DNA from: Vulcanimicrobiota bacterium
GTDB taxonomy: Bacteria; Vulcanimicrobiota; Vulcanimicrobiia; Eremiobacterales; Eremiobacteraceae
Reading direction: 5' to 3'
Length of the DNA stretch: 64,000 nucleotides
Assembly (NCBI GenBank): GCA_963772515.1
Contig: CAVYXC010000004.1
Location: 361,131 to 425,130 of the forward strand
The notes under the pieces were generated by a model, which did no database searches, was not told where the DNA came from, and saw nothing but the letters and a program-made list of their open reading frames with translations. The position numbers were made by a program, and so were the translations under genes. How positions within the stretch are numbered: the stretch's first letter is position 1; each line of letters starts with the position of its first letter. This document shows positions 1,920 through 59,336 of the stretch, piece by piece.

Positions 1920-1945
1920 ATGGAGCGGTCGAATTTATTCGACCG
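1920..1945 (+). repeat. Copy a of dispersed 26-bp palindromic element ATGGAGCGGTCGAATTTATTCGACCG, between convergent pfk and anti-sigma genes
   Basis: Exact consensus; 9-bp inverted arms CGGTCGAAT/ATTCGACCG with 2-nt spacer; recurs at 5 other loci in window. Confidence 0.8.
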
Positions 1946-2413: not shown

Positions 2414-2983
2414 TCATAATTTCGTCTGTCGCGGCAAAAGTTGAGGCACGCCGGGCGGATATGAGCTCGGATGCTCGACCGCAAAGCGACGCGAAAGCGC
2501 GGCGAGGTACTCGAAATCCTCCCAGATCGCGTCGTCGCCATGCGCGAGCCGCTCGAGCTTCACATAGCCCTCCAAACGCCGCCACAGCCCGTCGATCGGC
2601 CCGCAGTACTGCTCGAAGAACAAGCGCTGGTCGACGACGCCGTTACGCACCAACGTGCCCATGACCTCGACAGCGTTGGCGATCATCAAAACGGCTTGGC
2701 GAAGCACTTCGTAGCGCTCGTTGCCGTGCGTCGCTCGCAGAGCCGCGTCGTCGGTGACGAACTTGCGGTACCCTTCGTCGTTCGAAAGATCGCCCTCGCG
2801 ATGGATCAGCGCCACAGCTTGCTGATGGGCGTCATCGTCGAGCATGGTGCGCAACGTGAGAAAGCCCGTGATCTGGTTGCTCGCCCGCAGGTGGCGCAGT
2901 TGCACGAGCGCCGCGATCGCTGACGCTCCGATGACGATCGCCGTCGCGATGGTCGCGATGGCGGTGATCAGTTCAAGCGACAT
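2414..2983 (-). CDS. Uncharacterised membrane-anchored protein, paralog B of the family, 45 bp upstream of the anti-sigma kinase gene
   Basis: 189 aa; N-terminal TM helix; VQLRHLRASNQ and WEDFEYLAALSRRFAVEHPSSYPPGVP motifs shared with paralog A. Confidence 0.55.
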   Translation of the reverse strand: MSLELITAIATIATAIVIGASAIAALVQLRHLRASNQITGFLTLRTMLDDDAHQQAVALIHREGDLSNDEGYRKFVTDDAALRATHGNERYEVLRQAVLMIANAVEVMGTLVRNGVVDQRLFFEQYCGPIDGLWRRLEGYVKLERLAHGDDAIWEDFEYLAALSRRFAVEHPSSYPPGVPQLLPRQTKL

Positions 2984-4226
2984 GTTCCCCCTTTGATCCT
3001 ACAGACGACCACGCCACCAGATTGACGCCGAAATAGTAGCCTAGCTCGCGATAATCGCTGATGTCCAGCTTCACCAGATCCGCAGGCCGGCCCGGCGCGA
3101 TGCAGCCGGCGACGCCGGCAGCATCAAGCGAGCGCGCCGCCATCACGGTGATACCGGCGATCACCTCAGGTGCGCTCATCCCTAGCCGGCGTCGAGCGAC
3201 GTGTGCGACCTCTTGCAGCGAGTAGCACGGACAGGTGCCCGGGTTGAAATCAGTTGCCAGCGCGACCGGAACGCCCTCGCCGATCAGCGCGCGCGCCGGC
3301 GCAAAGCGCGGCAAGCTGAGATACTGCGCCGTCGCCGGGCACAGCACCGCGATCGTGCCTGCGTCTCGCAGGTTAGCGATATCGGCATCATCGATGAAGT
3401 TGAGATGATCGGCCGTCATGCAGCGCAGCCGCGCCGCGAGTGCTGCACCGCCGCTTGCGCCAAGCTCGTCCGCGTGGATGCGCAGCTGCATACCGCGCGC
3501 CGCGCACGCTTCGAGAAAGCGTGCGCTTTGTCGCGGCGTGAAATACCCGCGCTCGCAGAACGCGTCGGCGAACCGGGCGATGCCCGTCTCGGCCGCTGCG
3601 GGAAGAATCGTCGCGATGAGCTCGTCGACGAACGCGTCGTAGGAGGTGAATTCGGGCGGCAGCGCGTGCGCGCCGCAAAACGTCGCGATGACGTGCGGTA
3701 TATCAGCGGCGCGATCCAACGAGGCCAACGCCTGGAGCGACCTGCGCTCGCCCGCGGGAGTGAGCGTGTAGCCCGTTTTGATCTCCGCCGTCGTCGTGCC
3801 ATGTTCGAGCATGGTGGCCAGCCGGCGTCGTCCGGCCTGGATCAATCCATCGAGATCGAGCGCGCGCGTCTGCTCGACCGTGTAGGCGATGCCCAGTCCG
3901 GGCGGCTCGCCGCGTGACAGCGCCTCGAAGTCGGCGACGCGGTCACCCGCGAAGAGCGCGTGGGTGTGCGCGTCGACGAACCCGGGCATGACGACGCACC
4001 CCTGCGCGTCGATCACCTCCACATCGGCATATGGAGCGGCCGAATCTATTCGACCGTGCATGACCTCCACGATCACGCCATCGCGCACGATAACGGTCGC
4101 GTCGCGCATGATGCCTAGATCGTCTTCGCCGACGCGGGCGTCGCCGTTGACGCGCGCCGCCAGCGGCGCCATGGTGAGCAGCGTCGCGTTGACGATCGCA
4201 TACGATGCCGCCGTCGGCGCTACCAC
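2973..4226 (-). CDS. hutI: Imidazolonepropionase
   Basis: ORF 2973..4319; amidohydrolase motifs (PGFVDAHTH, KTGYTL, IHADE); probable GTG start overlapping ftcD stop, alternative start at 4319. Confidence 0.8.
   Translation of the reverse strand: MVAPTAASYAIVNATLLTMAPLAARVNGDARVGEDDLGIMRDATVIVRDGVIVEVMHGRIDSAAPYADVEVIDAQGCVVMPGFVDAHTHALFAGDRVADFEALSRGEPPGLGIAYTVEQTRALDLDGLIQAGRRRLATMLEHGTTTAEIKTGYTLTPAGERRSLQALASLDRAADIPHVIATFCGAHALPPEFTSYDAFVDELIATILPAAAETGIARFADAFCERGYFTPRQSARFLEACAARGMQLRIHADELGASGGAALAARLRCMTADHLNFIDDADIANLRDAGTIAVLCPATAQYLSLPRFAPARALIGEGVPVALATDFNPGTCPCYSLQEVAHVARRRLGMSAPEVIAGITVMAARSLDAAGVAGCIAPGRPADLVKLDISDYRELGYYFGVNLVAWSSVGSKGEHVA
4031..4056 (+). repeat. Copy b of 26-bp palindromic element, antisense and in-frame inside hutI (encodes HGRIDSAAPY loop)
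   Basis: ATGGAGCGGCCGAATCTATTCGACCG, 2 mismatches to consensus. Confidence 0.7.
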
Positions 4227-5164: not shown

Positions 5165-6772
5165 ATGGCCGTCATAGAATCGCGCGTCGATCCCGCGTCG
5201 CCAGAGTTCGCCGCAAATCGCGAGCGCTTTGTGTCGCTGCTCGAAGAGCTTGCGGCGCGCCACGCGCTCGTCGCGCGCGGCGGCGTCGCTGAAGCGCTGG
5301 CAAAACACGTCGCGCGCGGCAAGCTGCCTGCGCGCGAACGCGTCGAGCTGCTCATCGACCCGAATTCCGCGTTTCTCGAGTTTTCCGCGCTCGCCGCATG
5401 GGATATGTACAAGGGCGACGCGCCGAGCGCCGGCATCGTCACCGGCATCGGGCACGTCGAAGGCGTCGAGTGCATCATCGTCGCCAACGACGCCACCGTC
5501 AAAGGCGGCACCTATTTCCCGCTGACGGTCAAAAAGCATCTGCGCGCGCAGGAGATCGCCGAGCAGAACCATCTGCCATGCATCTATCTGGTCGACTCGG
5601 GCGGCGCGTTCTTGCCGCTGCAGGACCAGGTCTTCCCGGACCGCGAGCACTTCGGGCGTATCTTCTATAACCAAGCGCAGATGTCGCGCAAACGCATCCC
5701 GCAGATCGCGTCGGTGATGGGGTCGTGCACCGCCGGCGGCGCGTACGTCCCCGCGATGTCGGATGAGACGATCATCGTCAAAGGCGAAGGCACCATCTTT
5801 CTCGGCGGCCCGCCCTTGGTCAAAGCGGCGACCGGCGAGATCGTCAGCGCCGAAGACCTTGGCGGCGCGGACGTGCACGCGCGCATCTCCGGCGTCAGCG
5901 ACCACTATGCGCTCAACGACCGTCACGCGCTCGCCATGTGCCGGGAGATCGTCGCCAACCTCAATCGCGCCAAGCGCACTCCCTGGCCGGTGCAAGAATC
6001 GCGTCCGCCCAAGTACGATTCACAAGAGCTCTACGGCATCGTGCAGCGCGATTGGCGCAAACCGTACGAAGTACGCGAAGTGATCGCGCGCATCGTCGAC
6101 GGCAGCGAGTTCCACGAATTCAAGACGCTCTACGGCGAGACGCTGGTGTGCGGCTTCGCCCACATCGAAGGCAACCCGGTGGGCATCTTGGCCAACAACG
6201 GCATCTTGTTCTCCGAAAGCGCGCTCAAGGGCACGCACTTCATCGAGCTGGCGTGCCAGCGCGGCGTGCCGCTCGTGTTCTTGCAGAACATCACCGGTTT
6301 TATGGTCGGTAAGAAATATGAAGAGGGCGGCATCGCCAAGGACGGCGCCAAGCTCGTGATGGCGGTGGCCAACGCGAACGTTCCCAAATTCACCGTCATC
6401 ATCGGCGGCTCGTTCGGCGCCGGCAACTACGGCATGTGCGGGCGCGCGTTTTCGCCGCGCCAGCTGTGGATGTGGCCCAACGCTCGCATCTCGGTCATGG
6501 GTGGCCCGCAAGCGGCCAACGTCCTGTTGACGGTCCGCCTCGAAGCGCTGGAGAAGAAGGGCGCGACGATGACCGAACAGGAGCGCGCCGAATTCATGCG
6601 TCCGACGCTTGAGAAATATGAGGCCGAAGGCAACCCCTACTATAGCACTGCGCGGCTGTGGGATGACGGCATCATCGATCCGGCCGACACGCGGCGCGTG
6701 TTGGGCATCGGCATCTCAGCTGCCGCCAATGCCCCGCTGGAACCCACGACCTTCGGCGTCTTTAGAATGTAG
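5165..6772 (+). CDS. mccB: Methylcrotonyl-CoA carboxylase carboxyltransferase (beta) subunit
   Basis: Internal Met of ORF 4595..6772 ([22 protein letters not shown]...); acyl-CoA carboxyltransferase family; final codons ATG TAG lie in palindromic element copy c1. Confidence 0.85.
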
Positions 6773-6782
6773 CGGTCGAATT
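6767..6782 (+). repeat. Half copy c1 of palindromic element (ATGTAGCGGTCGAATT), contains mccB stop codon
   Basis: Left half of consensus only; 9 nt upstream of full copy c2. Confidence 0.6.
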
Positions 6783-6791
6783 ACAGATAGG

Positions 6792-6814
6792 ATGTAGCGG
6801 TCGAATTTCGACCG
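6792..6814 (+). repeat. Copy c2 of palindromic element (ATGTAGCGGTCGAATTTCGACCG), in mccB-hydratase intergenic region
   Basis: Consensus arms with shortened spacer. Confidence 0.75.
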
Positions 6815-22080: not shown

Positions 22081-22099
22081 ATGGAGCGGTCGACTTTAG
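22081..22099 (+). repeat. Half copy d1 of palindromic element (ATGGAGCGGTCGACTTTAG)
   Basis: Matches left part of consensus; 11 nt upstream of full copy d2. Confidence 0.6.
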
Positions 22100-22110
22100 A
22101 GCGCCCGTTT

Positions 22111-22136
22111 ATGGAGCGGTCGAATTTATTCGACCG
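22111..22136 (+). repeat. Copy d2 of palindromic element (exact consensus) in divergent hutH/cmk promoter region
   Basis: ATGGAGCGGTCGAATTTATTCGACCG exact. Confidence 0.8.
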
Positions 22137-40720: not shown

Positions 40721-40746
40721 ATGGAGCGGTCGAATAAATTCGACCG
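40721..40746 (+). repeat. Copy e of palindromic element (ATGGAGCGGTCGAATAAATTCGACCG) at 5' end of gltX
   Basis: Consensus with AA spacer; encodes MERSNKFDR in gltX frame. Confidence 0.75.
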
Positions 40747-43023: not shown

Positions 43024-43701
43024 ATGCAACGAGACTCCATCTTCCGGCAGATACGCCTCGACTGGCGCGCGTGCTTTGAGCGCGACCCCGCGGCGCGCAA
43101 CTGGCTCGAAGTGCTGCTGGCCTATCCGGGTTTTCATGCCCTCTTCTGGCACCGGCTGATCATCCATCCGCTGCACCGCGCCGGCATACCCGTCATTCCG
43201 CGCGTGCTGTCCAACATGTCGCGGTTTTTCACCGGCATCGAGATCCACCCGGGCGCGGAGATCGGCTCGGGTCTGTTCATCGATCATGGCATGGGCGTCG
43301 TGATCGGCGAGACGACCGAGATCGGGCGCAACTGCACGCTCTATCAAGGCGTGACCTTGGGCGGCACGTCGCTGCAGCGCGGCAAGCGCCACCCGACGCT
43401 TGAAGACAACGTCATCGTCGGCGCCGGCGCCGGCATCATCGGCGCGGTGGTCATCGGCGCCGGTTCGAAGATCGCGGCGGGGGCGGTCGTCGTCAAATCG
43501 GTCCCGCCGAACTGCACGGTTGTCGGTGTGCCTGGCCGCGTGATCTATCAGGACGGCAAGCCGGCCGAACCGGTGTTGCCGCGTGTGGACATGCCCGACC
43601 CCGAAGCGGACGCGATCGCCGCGCTGCAGCAACGGGTCGAGGCGCTCGAGATGGGCTTCCGAAAGCTCGAAGAGCCGGATGGCAGTAAGACTCTACAATA
43701 G
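43024..43701 (+). CDS. cysE: Serine O-acetyltransferase
   Basis: 225 aa; hexapeptide repeats; SAT N-terminal domain. Confidence 0.85.
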
Positions 43702-45152
43702 CCGCACCCGGTCCCTCGAAGAGCTCCAGCCGCTCGAACCCGGGCGGCTGACGATGTACGTGTGCGGCATGACGCCCAGTTTTCACCCGCATCTGGGTCA
43801 CGCGCGCACGTTCTTGACGTTCGACGTCTTGCGCCGTCACCTCGCCGCGCGCGGCTACAAGGTCGACTACGTCCAAAACGTCACCGATATCGACGACCGC
43901 ATCATCGAGCGCGCCGCCACCGAAGGCGTGCCCTGGGACGACGTTGCCACTCGTTATCTGGCGGAGTACGAGGCGTGCGCCACAGCGGCTCGGGCTTATA
44001 CCGCCCGATGACGAACCGCGCGCGACTCAGGAAATCTCTTCCATTATAGAGCTCATCTCGGGGCTCGTCGCCAAGGGCGCGGCGTACGAGTCGGGAGACG
44101 GCGTCTATTTCGCGGTGGACGAGGGCGTATTTCCGCATTACGGTGAGCTCAGCCACCAGAGCATCGAAGAACTGCGCGCCGGCGTGCGCGTCGCCGTGCG
44201 CGAGGATAAGCGCGGGCGGTTGGACTTCGCGTTGTGGAAGAAGGCCAAGCCCGGCGAGCCGAGCTGGCCGAGCCCCTGGGGCCCCGGCCGGCCGGGCTGG
44301 CACATCGAGTGCTCGGCAATGGCGCGCAAGTATCTCGGGGATCAGATCGACATCCATGGCGGCGCCGCCGACTTGATCTTTCCGCACCACGAGAACGAAG
44401 TCGCGCAGACCGAGACGTTCACCGGCAAGCATCCGATGGCGAATTTCTGGGTGCATGCGGGATTGCTCAACGTCGACGGTCAGAAGATGAGCAAGTCGCT
44501 TGGCAACTTCACGCCGCTCACCCAGATGCTCGACCGCTATCCGGCGGCCGTGATCCGCTACCTGTTCCTGCAGACCGGCTATCGCAAACCGAGCAACTTC
44601 ACGGCTGACTCGATCGAAGCGGCGGGCAAGGGATTGCGCGGGCTGTACGCCGACCTCGACAAACTCCGCGCCCGCGCGCGCCTAAACCCCATGGAGCGGT
44701 CGGATTCATCCGACCGGCAACGTGAGAGCGCGATCGAAGAATTCAACGCATTTCTCGATGACGACCTGAACACCGCGGGCGCCATCGGCTGGCTGCAGAC
44801 CTATGTGAAGCCTTCGATTAAAGATCGTACAGGGGCCGATGTTGTTGCCGTCGTCGAGCAGGCGCTCGAACGGCTTGGCCTGCCGGTGGACGCCGAGAAC
44901 GCCGGCGTCGCTGCGACGTCATCGCAGCTCAAGTTGAGCAAAGCGGCGCGCATGGAGTTCTCGATCATCACCGGCGATCGCGACGCACCCGACGACGACT
45001 TGGTCTCAAAGGTCGTCGCGATCCGCGAAAAGGCGCGCAAGTCCAAAGATTGGGCGCAGTCGGATCGTCTGCGCGACGCGCTCGCGCGCGCGGGCATCGC
45101 GGTCAAAGACACCGCGACGGGTTCGCAGTGGAGCGTCGATGGCGGCAGATGA
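43679..45152 (+). CDS. cysS: Cysteine--tRNA ligase, interrupted by apparent +1 frameshift near 43980-43990
   Basis: N-part in ORF 43583..44011 (MAVRLYNSR...HLGHART), remainder in ORF 43944..45152 (PPDDEPRAT..., KMSKS); removing one nt around 43984 restores a continuous class-I motif alignment; contains in-frame element copy f. Confidence 0.75.
44691..44716 (+). repeat. Copy f of palindromic element (ATGGAGCGGTCGGATTCATCCGACCG) in-frame inside cysS
   Basis: Arms carry compensatory A>G/T>C changes preserving perfect 9-bp inverted repeat; encodes [10 protein letters not shown]. Confidence 0.75.
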
Positions 45153-46657: not shown

Positions 46658-46681
46658 GGCACGCGACAATCCAGCCACGTA

Positions 46682-46713
46682 GGACCCGAGCCACGCTCGG
46701 GTCCTTTCATTTC
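46682..46713 (+). terminator. Rho-independent terminator after sigH
   Basis: GGACCCGAGC-cac-GCTCGGGTCC stem followed by TTTCATTTC. Confidence 0.65.
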
Positions 46714-58027: not shown

Positions 58028-58093
58028 CGGAGAGGAAGGAACGGACACGCGTCAGAACGCGTGAAACCCTGTTCACGCGATAGCAGTCGCGAC
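58028..58093 (+). repeat. Copy 1 of about 55-65 bp repeat containing inverted repeat CGCGTGAA-N4-6-TTCACGCG, upstream of small gene 58117
   Basis: Near-identical to 59228..59336 copy. Confidence 0.6.
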
Positions 58094-59227: not shown

Positions 59228-59336
59228 GCGGAGAGGAAGGAACGAACATGCGACAGAACGCGTGAAACTGTTCACGCGACCCCTCATTTCGAGCACCATC
59301 CGCAGTCCAAGATAAGCAGTCGCGACGCTCAGCGAG
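59228..59336 (+). repeat. Copy 2 of repeat (extended form), upstream of small gene 59361
   Basis: CGGAGAGGAAGGAACGAACATGCGACAGAACGCGTGAAACTGTTCACGCGA...AGCAGTCGCGAC. Confidence 0.6.

Follow-up and report, generated by a model that had tools for sequence, protein, structure and literature searches.

What does a short palindromic repeat do inside the coding sequence of an enzyme? The question is raised by positions 4031-4056 of a 64,000-nt stretch of DNA from Vulcanimicrobiota bacterium (contig CAVYXC010000004.1, positions 361,131 to 425,130; the whole stretch is hereafter called the window), where a 26-nt palindromic element lies within hutI, the gene for imidazolonepropionase. In this study, the element was identified as a genuine member of a family of G[T/G]AG-tagged hairpins of the repetitive extragenic palindrome (REP) type, here called REP-A. 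It is most probably a fossil copy, which would have entered or overwritten a permissive loop of HutI in an ancestor and then decayed as ordinary coding sequence.

The hutI copy and the REP-A family

The host gene and the parts of the element are the following.

2973-4226, minus strand: hutI (imidazolonepropionase), 417 codons, likely GTG start at 4226
4031-4056, plus strand: REP-A copy in hutI, ATGGAG CGGCCGAAT CT ATTCGACCG
4031-4036, plus strand: head of the copy, ATGGAG
4037-4045, plus strand: left arm, CGGCCGAAT
4046-4047, plus strand: loop, CT
4048-4056, plus strand: right arm, ATTCGACCG
4029-4055, minus strand (read from 4055 to 4029): codons for GRIDSAAPY, HutI residues 58-66, in a loop between predicted strands E51-57 and E70-73

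Judged by its sequence, the open reading frame (ORF) is a HutI: it encodes a full-length amidohydrolase with the HutI signature and stands in a hut gene context. The B. subtilis enzyme (2bb0) matches it with E=3e-78, covering residues 19-404, Pfam assigns Amidohydro_1 and Amidohydro_3, and the nearest database relatives are named imidazolonepropionase and come from Candidatus Eremiobacteraeota. A formimidoyltransferase gene adjoins hutI upstream, its stop codon overlapping the likely GTG start, and hutH lies 17 kb off. Every column that is invariant in an alignment of 30 Eremiobacterota HutI proteins (A1) is present in the window protein, and the enzyme looks intact. The sole 100%-identical database protein (P0027) has 248 aa, which is 59% of the ORF; this public annotation seems to be N-terminally truncated, and the REP copy lies upstream of its start.

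On the coding strand the copy is read as CAC GGT CGA ATA GAT TCG GCC GCT CCA TAT, that is H-GRIDSAAPY, residues 57-66. The original prediction, which placed a copy of a palindromic element antisense and in frame within hutI and let it encode this peptide, was confirmed in both respects. When the window was searched for the repeat at up to 3 mismatches, with the chance level taken from 100 dinucleotide-preserving shuffles, four matches were obtained on the plus strand (1920, 4031, 22111 and 40721), and 0.00 were expected. The hutI copy differs from the window repeat, ATGGAG-CGGTCGAAT-tt-ATTCGACCG, by 2 mismatches in 26 nt, and because no chance match is expected at this level it belongs to the family. 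Its arms contain one mismatch, which is C.A on the plus strand and G.U on the hutI mRNA strand. Further copies came to light through repeat finding and a search with the core: one at 44691, a degenerate one at 22081 and two GTAG-headed ones at 6767 (partial) and 6792. The total is 8 REP-A copies in 64 kb, all of them on the plus strand. The consensus, nTG[G/T]AG + CGGTCGAAT + TT/TC + ATTCGACCG, combines a one-sided head with a 9-bp palindrome and measures 26 nt.

Beyond the window, an exact-pattern scan of Joint Genome Institute (JGI) metagenome contigs matched at least 120 stretches. A fuzzy search gave 199 REP-A copies in 1.18 Mb of mostly Eremiobacterota-like DNA, a sample that is biased towards consensus-like copies, the scan pattern being exact. 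Seed copies were picked by the pattern GKAG, which fixed positions 4-6 ([G/T]AG) and left the TG at positions 2-3 free. This TG is 89-99% conserved. Positions 3-6 are G, G/T, A and G in at least 99% of the 199 copies, the tag being GGAG in 116 (58%) and GTAG in 82, and it is found at one end only, with no counterpart on the 3' side. In 51% of copies a T follows directly on the element, and no target-site duplication was seen in the composition of the flanks. Covariation supports the stem: compensatory changes occur at five of its nine pairs, the paired share of cells is 97.7%, and 0/500 shuffles reach the observed value; pair 14-19 changes from A.T to G.C or C.G in 13 distinct sequences. The fold is a 9-bp stem (8 bp and a tetraloop when folded), and intergenic copies reach -14 to -19 kcal/mol. 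With Rfam at gathering thresholds, no family was found anywhere in the window, and a scan of the window for tRNA and tmRNA gave no hit. These two negative scans rule out REP-A as a known RNA family or a tRNA fragment. Neither the REP-A sequence nor the phylum Eremiobacterota occurred in the literature searched.

The HutI loop and the age of its REP-A copy

Which part of the protein is affected? In alignment A1, complemented by loop segments from 116 of 120 relatives, the stretch between DGxIxxV and xDAxG is hypervariable and ranges from ~11 to 29 residues. An AlphaFold model of the window protein (mean predicted local distance difference test score, pLDDT, 90.4) places residues 58-69 in a loop of the small N-terminal domain, flanked by strands E51-57 and E70-73. 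The ten-residue mean of pLDDT drops to 76 there, compared with 92-95 on either side. This structure mapping bears out the predicted loop location. The border that had been given as a conserved GRI motif was misassigned, as GRI is encoded by the element itself; what is conserved in HutI is DG[RV]I (residues 49-52), here DGVI. The prediction had further been staked on element-free orthologs not sharing the peptide, and in the ortholog alignment their peptides indeed differ at the site.

The same loop contains other REP types in related genomes. A second family, REP-B (GTAG + GACCCGAGC-nnn-GCTCGGGTC), lies in it in sense orientation on contigs L001, L158, L159 and L007, the last with two units. 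One such loop reads GTA GGA CCC GAG CGA AGC TCG GGT, or VGPERSSG, and PERSS/LERSS-type loop peptides are present in at least nine database orthologs, which cluster together. The hutI gene of L157 (P0033) carries a third variant, TGTGGT CGCGCGAATTTATTCGCGCG, again in sense, which is translated as GRANLFARS; a second copy of this variant follows directly after the hutI stop. In a loop-masked neighbour-joining (NJ) tree of hutI, genes with different REP types fall in separate clades. Judging from these sequences, at least three independent events put REP sequence in the HutI loop. Since two other REP types hit it independently, the loop is a permissive landing site, in which nearly any sequence would be tolerated, and not a special adaptation. 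The peptide HGHASPAPQ in the loop of L035 was considered as a decayed REP-A copy and was not accepted, the nucleotide similarity being too weak to decide.

The age of the copy can be judged from the nearest ortholog, P0001 on JGI metagenome contig L034 (87% aa identity, same gene order). It has CGGTCGAGTAAACTCCACCGCTCCAT at the same codons, translated as GRVNSTAPF, and the idea of a recent or private insertion was therefore abandoned. The flanking codons are identical in both genes, CAC GGT on one side and GCT CCA on the other. Over the whole of hutI the two share 83.7% nucleotide identity. The element copies agree at 21 of 26 positions (5/26 differ), and the gene-wide mean for 26-nt windows is 21.7. 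Either copy stands 2-3 steps away from the consensus, and most of the differences between the two change an amino acid. Their stems are weak, with folding energies of -11.1 kcal/mol in the window and -7.8 in L034 (the intergenic range is given above), and with z values of -1.8 and -1.2, respectively, versus -4.2 for the intergenic 1914-1951 segment and -4.7 for the copy at the gltX 5' end. Intergenic copies at shared junctions, in contrast, are 25/26 identical between genomes whose hutI is only 72% identical. Because of this gene-average divergence and these weak stems, set against near-identical intergenic copies, the hutI copy is old by its sequence and behaves like a relic passed on vertically, its upkeep as a REP having ceased.

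Taken as a course of events, a REP unit would have entered or overwritten the loop in an ancestor shared by the window organism and the relative with 87% identity. It would likely have travelled as single-stranded hairpin DNA, moved by a Y1/HUH enzyme of the REP-associated tyrosine transposase (RAYT) type that recognises the stem and the TG[T/G]AG tag. The event could have survived by being in frame, stop-free, hydrophilic and in a tolerant loop. Afterwards, the unit would have evolved as weakly constrained ordinary coding sequence that has no function of its own and whose peptide is neutral. The mobilisation step is proposed by analogy with published REP systems (PMC2817692; PMC3479197; PMC8266576).

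Several observations weigh against a single ancestral insertion of this kind. No precise empty-site hutI ortholog was found among the orthologs compared, and the copy adds no net length: the window loop has 15 residues (H57 to V71), which puts it with the shortest of the family, and it does not exceed REP-free loops in length. It also aligns gap-free to the B. subtilis HutI loop GQKGAEAGY. Given this alignment and the missing empty site, either older residues of the loop would have been overwritten by the event, or the loop was very short beforehand. The case for insertion in hutI thus comes from REP-A family membership and not from a length difference. What had been announced as a second example of genic insertion holds in so far as the hutI copy is one of several genic copies (one in cysS; ~30/172 in the larger sample, see below), and fails as to a net insertion. 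In the NJ tree, P0003 and P0024, which have GRNST/GRNSS loops, do not group with the window clade, so that REP-A events may number one or two. The five differences from the L034 copy include one compensatory pair (A.T to G.C) that agrees with a common subfamily, and this could point to a period of stem maintenance, to gene conversion or to separate insertions; a rough chance estimate for it is ~p=0.1. Finally, HUH and Y-x-NP motif regular expressions, the only method applied, found no RAYT/IS200-like Y1 transposase in six-frame translations of the window and the 1.18 Mb of related DNA. As a candidate for a REP-flanked transposase, an inverted REP-A pair ~700 bp apart (L131, L140) was considered and rejected; it encloses a DAG-kinase-like gene with an in-frame copy of its own.

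Some of this would suit a hot spot, where the window and L034 copies arose by repeated events, either as independent insertions or through gene conversion from other REP-A units. Three REP types colonised the HutI loop in different lineages, the GRNST-type hutI genes lie outside the window clade, and L034 has the GAGT/ACTC pair of the common subfamily where the window has AAT/ATT. However, the two copies agree in position, orientation, frame and flanking codons, and being 2-3 steps each from the consensus and 5 apart they fit divergence from one consensus-like ancestor. Repeated events are therefore rather unlikely.

Could the copy be a working cis-element in hutI, either as an RNA hairpin for translation or mRNA stability, as an antisense transcription stop or as a protein-binding site? 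All 8 window copies share the plus orientation, including the hutI copy that is antisense to its host. Moreover, intergenic copies at orthologous junctions stay near the consensus over deep divergence, which suggests that the family is maintained, and the T-to-C change in the arm preserves a G.U pair on the mRNA strand. Against such a role stand the divergence from L034 at the gene-average rate, through changes that mostly alter amino acids, and the weak stems in both genomes. Most hutI orthologs have no REP-A, or a different palindrome, at this place, and genic copies elsewhere are found in sense (13) about as often as in antisense (17). A cis-acting function is very unlikely on these grounds.

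Co-option of the peptide, by which GRIDSAAPY would give HutI a new property (interaction, stability or regulation) that is kept by selection, is more improbable still. In its favour, the GRxNSTAP frame recurs in many unrelated proteins and the peptide has been kept since the split from L034. However, 4 of 9 residues differ between GRIDSAAPY and GRVNSTAPF, ortholog loops are unrelated sequences of 11-29 residues, and the confidence of the structural model is lowest here within the N-terminal domain. The frame bias is explained more simply as a filter for stop-free, hydrophilic frames. The copy does have an open frame, as was originally stated, and this is unremarkable, five of the six frames of the GGAG-headed consensus being open when read from the sequence.

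Chance resemblance or an assembly artefact is effectively refuted: nothing positive speaks for it, other than that an indel error in the assembly is probable at least once (cysS frameshift, below), and against it stand the absence of expected matches in shuffles, the element at the same codons of the independent JGI contig L034 with conserved gene order, and an intact hutI ORF with all invariant residues of the 30 aligned HutI.

For hutI itself the consequence is small, as the element-derived loop looks neutral. In a wider sense, a HutI loop with three REP types indicates that permissive loops of proteins receive sequence from selfish hairpin repeats, and copies of different ages are material for estimating how fast a REP decays once it is unmaintained.

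REP copies at other junctions and in other genes

The remaining copies in the window, and one unit of the second family, are the following.

1920-1945, plus strand: consensus REP-A, fills the 29-nt gap between convergent pfk (plus strand) and an anti-sigma-kinase-like HATPase gene (minus strand)
6767-6781, plus strand: partial REP-A (head and left arm), whose ATG TAG forms the final codon and stop of a carboxyltransferase gene
6792-6814, plus strand: REP-A with GTAG head and shortened loop, upstream of an enoyl-CoA hydratase gene
22081-22106, plus strand: degenerate REP-A, right arm lost; opens a head-to-tail pair between hutH and cmk
22111-22136, plus strand: consensus REP-A, second unit of the hutH/cmk head-to-tail pair
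40721-40746, plus strand: REP-A at the gltX 5' end, with an in-frame ATG 20 codons before the conserved VRVRFAPAPTG core
44691-44716, plus strand: REP-A in cysS, sense and in frame (MERSDSSDR), with a compensated arm change A.T to G.C
46679-46704, plus strand: REP-B, second GTAG-tagged family (GTAG GACCCGAGC cac GCTCGGGTC C), followed by the T-rich stretch TTTCATTT

In the window, pfk, the HATPase gene and the carboxyltransferase gene have copies right at their stops. At the pfk/HATPase junction of other genomes, L007 has a copy; in L035 the genes overlap and in L159 they are ~11 nt apart, both without a copy. In every genome examined, ATG TAG closes the carboxyltransferase gene, and this ATGTAG coincides with the REP head. 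The unit that follows it is REP-A in the window, L034, L001 and L007, consists of REP-B-like units in L159 and is another variant in L157. By analogy with IS200/IS605 elements, these junctions suggest that the REP head may be an insertion target.

At gltX, translation may start at the ATG of the element (MERSNKFDR...) or at a downstream GTG, with the hairpin in the 5' untranslated region. The head ATG as a general gene start (MERSNLFDR...) was rejected, because most copies follow stop codons or sit within genes; for gltX it may hold. Copies at gene starts and ends, as in gltX and the carboxyltransferase gene, can thus mislead start and stop calls in annotation. In cysS, a counterpart of the REP-A copy is found at the same site in L061 and reads PERSSLLDR. 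The window cysS (43679-45152) is split over two frames at ~43980-43990, with one extra base after ...GCC ACA relative to the L061 ortholog. Either the assembly contains an indel error here, which is probable, or the frameshift is real and affects an essential gene. The REP-B unit at 46679-46704 sits between two plus-strand genes and has the look of a terminator. Apart from the REPs, the window contains two 40-nt direct repeats (58028-58067 and 59229-59268; CGGAGAGGAAGGAACGGACACGCGTCAGAACGCGTGAAAC), which are 93% identical, 1.2 kb apart and have an inverted ACGCGT...ACGCGT motif within.

How often do REP-A copies lie in genes? Coding-like frames were called by a codon log-likelihood score trained on window genes, and 172 copies were assessable. 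A classification based on G+C at third codon positions (GC3) was dropped, as it picked wrong frames, including the one for the hutI copy. Coding-like frames were assigned to 30/172 copies, ~17%, an approximate share from a biased sample, and 142/172 lie outside such frames. The frame of 17 of the 30 genic copies is antisense GR[IMV]NSTAP, that of 10 is sense (M)ERSN[SL]FDR, and 3 have sense SGRI[YH]ST. The commonest, antisense G-R-(I/V/M)-(N/D)-S-(T/A)-A-P, is the one that is read in hutI. Eight genic hosts were identified by Pfam (FabH, CysS, DUF255 thioredoxin-like, NuoC, LarC, ribosomal protein L4 (rplD), a MutY-like glycosylase and a DAG-kinase-like protein), and DnaE, PurL and a UvrD-like helicase were recognised by eye as further hosts. 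Several of these have repair or replication functions: two tandem copies lie in the MutY-like gene (L153 2845-2906), two in a UvrD/AddA-like helicase gene (L093 2548-2615) and one in DnaE (L052 2728-2753), which agrees with the enrichment of intragenic REPs reported for genes of this kind. Orthologous metal-transporter genes (L099 1676-1701 and L147 1479-1504) have REP-A in a His-rich loop in different frames, MERSNSFDR versus SSGRIHSND.

The copies are also polar. Of 49 neighbouring pairs with a spacing of at least 100 bp, 38 share one orientation (p=1.4e-4), and pairs closer than 100 bp are head-to-tail in 24 of 25 cases. On related contigs (L093, L096 and others), runs of 5-7 REP-A copies extend over ~10 kb in one orientation. 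As the genic copies are near-equally divided between 13 sense and 17 antisense, REP-A polarity is independent of transcription. A link to replication would be plausible; the GC skew along the window is flat, and no replication strand is assignable from it.

It is tempting to speculate that in Eremiobacterota, REPs are a frequent, strand-polarised source of in-frame segments of 9-12 residues in loops of housekeeping proteins. About one copy in six would be genic, with only three hydrophilic frames in use, loops such as HutI 58-69 would be re-hit by different REP families, and the head TG[T/G]AG would be the chromosomal target of a single-strand insertion that is tied to replication direction. 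We regard this broader picture as a possibility that is so far doubtful. If true, the clade would be a natural system to date and dissect REP insertion through filled, decayed and re-hit sites. Independently of it, REP families are now documented in an uncultured phylum, with an unusually high in-frame genic share.

Comparison with known palindromic repeats

GTAG-tagged REPs, including intragenic units, have been described before (Nunvar et al., 2010, PMC2817692; Di Nocera, De Gregorio & Rocco, 2013, PMC3733652). GTAG as well as CGTC REPs are known from within genes, among them tRNA synthetase and DNA replication/repair genes, and were argued to occupy flexible loops (PMC3733652). Head-head dimers predominate among published GTAG REPs, head-to-tail dimers being less common, and REP families without an obvious transposase were noted as well (PMC3733652). 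REP-A is a GTAG REP in that it is a short hairpin unit with a one-ended tag and many dispersed, mostly extragenic copies. As in the known families, the unit falls within 20-40 bp and has a tetranucleotide tag at one end of a 9-bp stem. Its copies are numerous and mostly intergenic, often after stops or between convergent genes, several families occur per genome, and a minority lies in frame in genes, here cysS, dnaE, uvrD-like and mutY-like. Unlike in the known families, the head is a mix of GGAG (58%) and GTAG with a conserved TG before it, the genic share is ~17% in a biased sample, no RAYT turned up by motif regular expressions, and phylum and sequence are new to the searched literature. 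The head-to-tail order of nearly all close pairs likewise departs from the head-head dimer, which is typical of GTAG REPs, not defining.

Rickettsia palindromic elements (RPEs) are in-frame palindromic repeats of 100-150 bp, and some of them are ancient and clade-wide, e.g., the RPE-7-like insert in pheT (PMC1779305). REP-A resembles them in being palindromic and in occurring both in intergenic regions and in frame in loops of functional genes. However, it has 26 nt, encodes 9 residues and does not lengthen hutI on balance, whereas RPEs add 20-50 residues. The two share no sequence similarity, and their hosts belong to different phyla.

In E. coli, REPs and bacterial interspersed mosaic elements (BIMEs) consist of a GTAG-type tag and an imperfect palindrome, which is recognised as single-stranded DNA by the Y1 HUH enzyme TnpA-REP, a RAYT (PMC8266576; PMC3479197). 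REP-A shares the GTAG-type tag that adjoins an imperfect palindrome. E. coli REPs form inverted pairs (BIMEs) and are extragenic, whereas REP-A is co-oriented over kilobases, and its enzyme is a presumed one. The ends of IS200/IS605 elements are subterminal hairpins with a short specific flank that serves as target and cleavage site. A hairpin with a flank of this kind would fit the carboxyltransferase ATG TAG end with a different REP per genome. In contrast to these elements, REP-A is a single hairpin that lacks a transposase ORF as well as left and right ends. Nor is it a transposable element of the miniature inverted-repeat type (MITE), as it has a single hairpin with a 2-nt spacer, no duplicated target and only the preference for T at +1 (51%).

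In summary, intragenic GTAG REPs and RPEs are already published; the present case differs from them in phylum, sequence, mixed head and head-to-tail order, in its strong local co-orientation, in the large genic fraction of this sample and in a single loop having been hit repeatedly.

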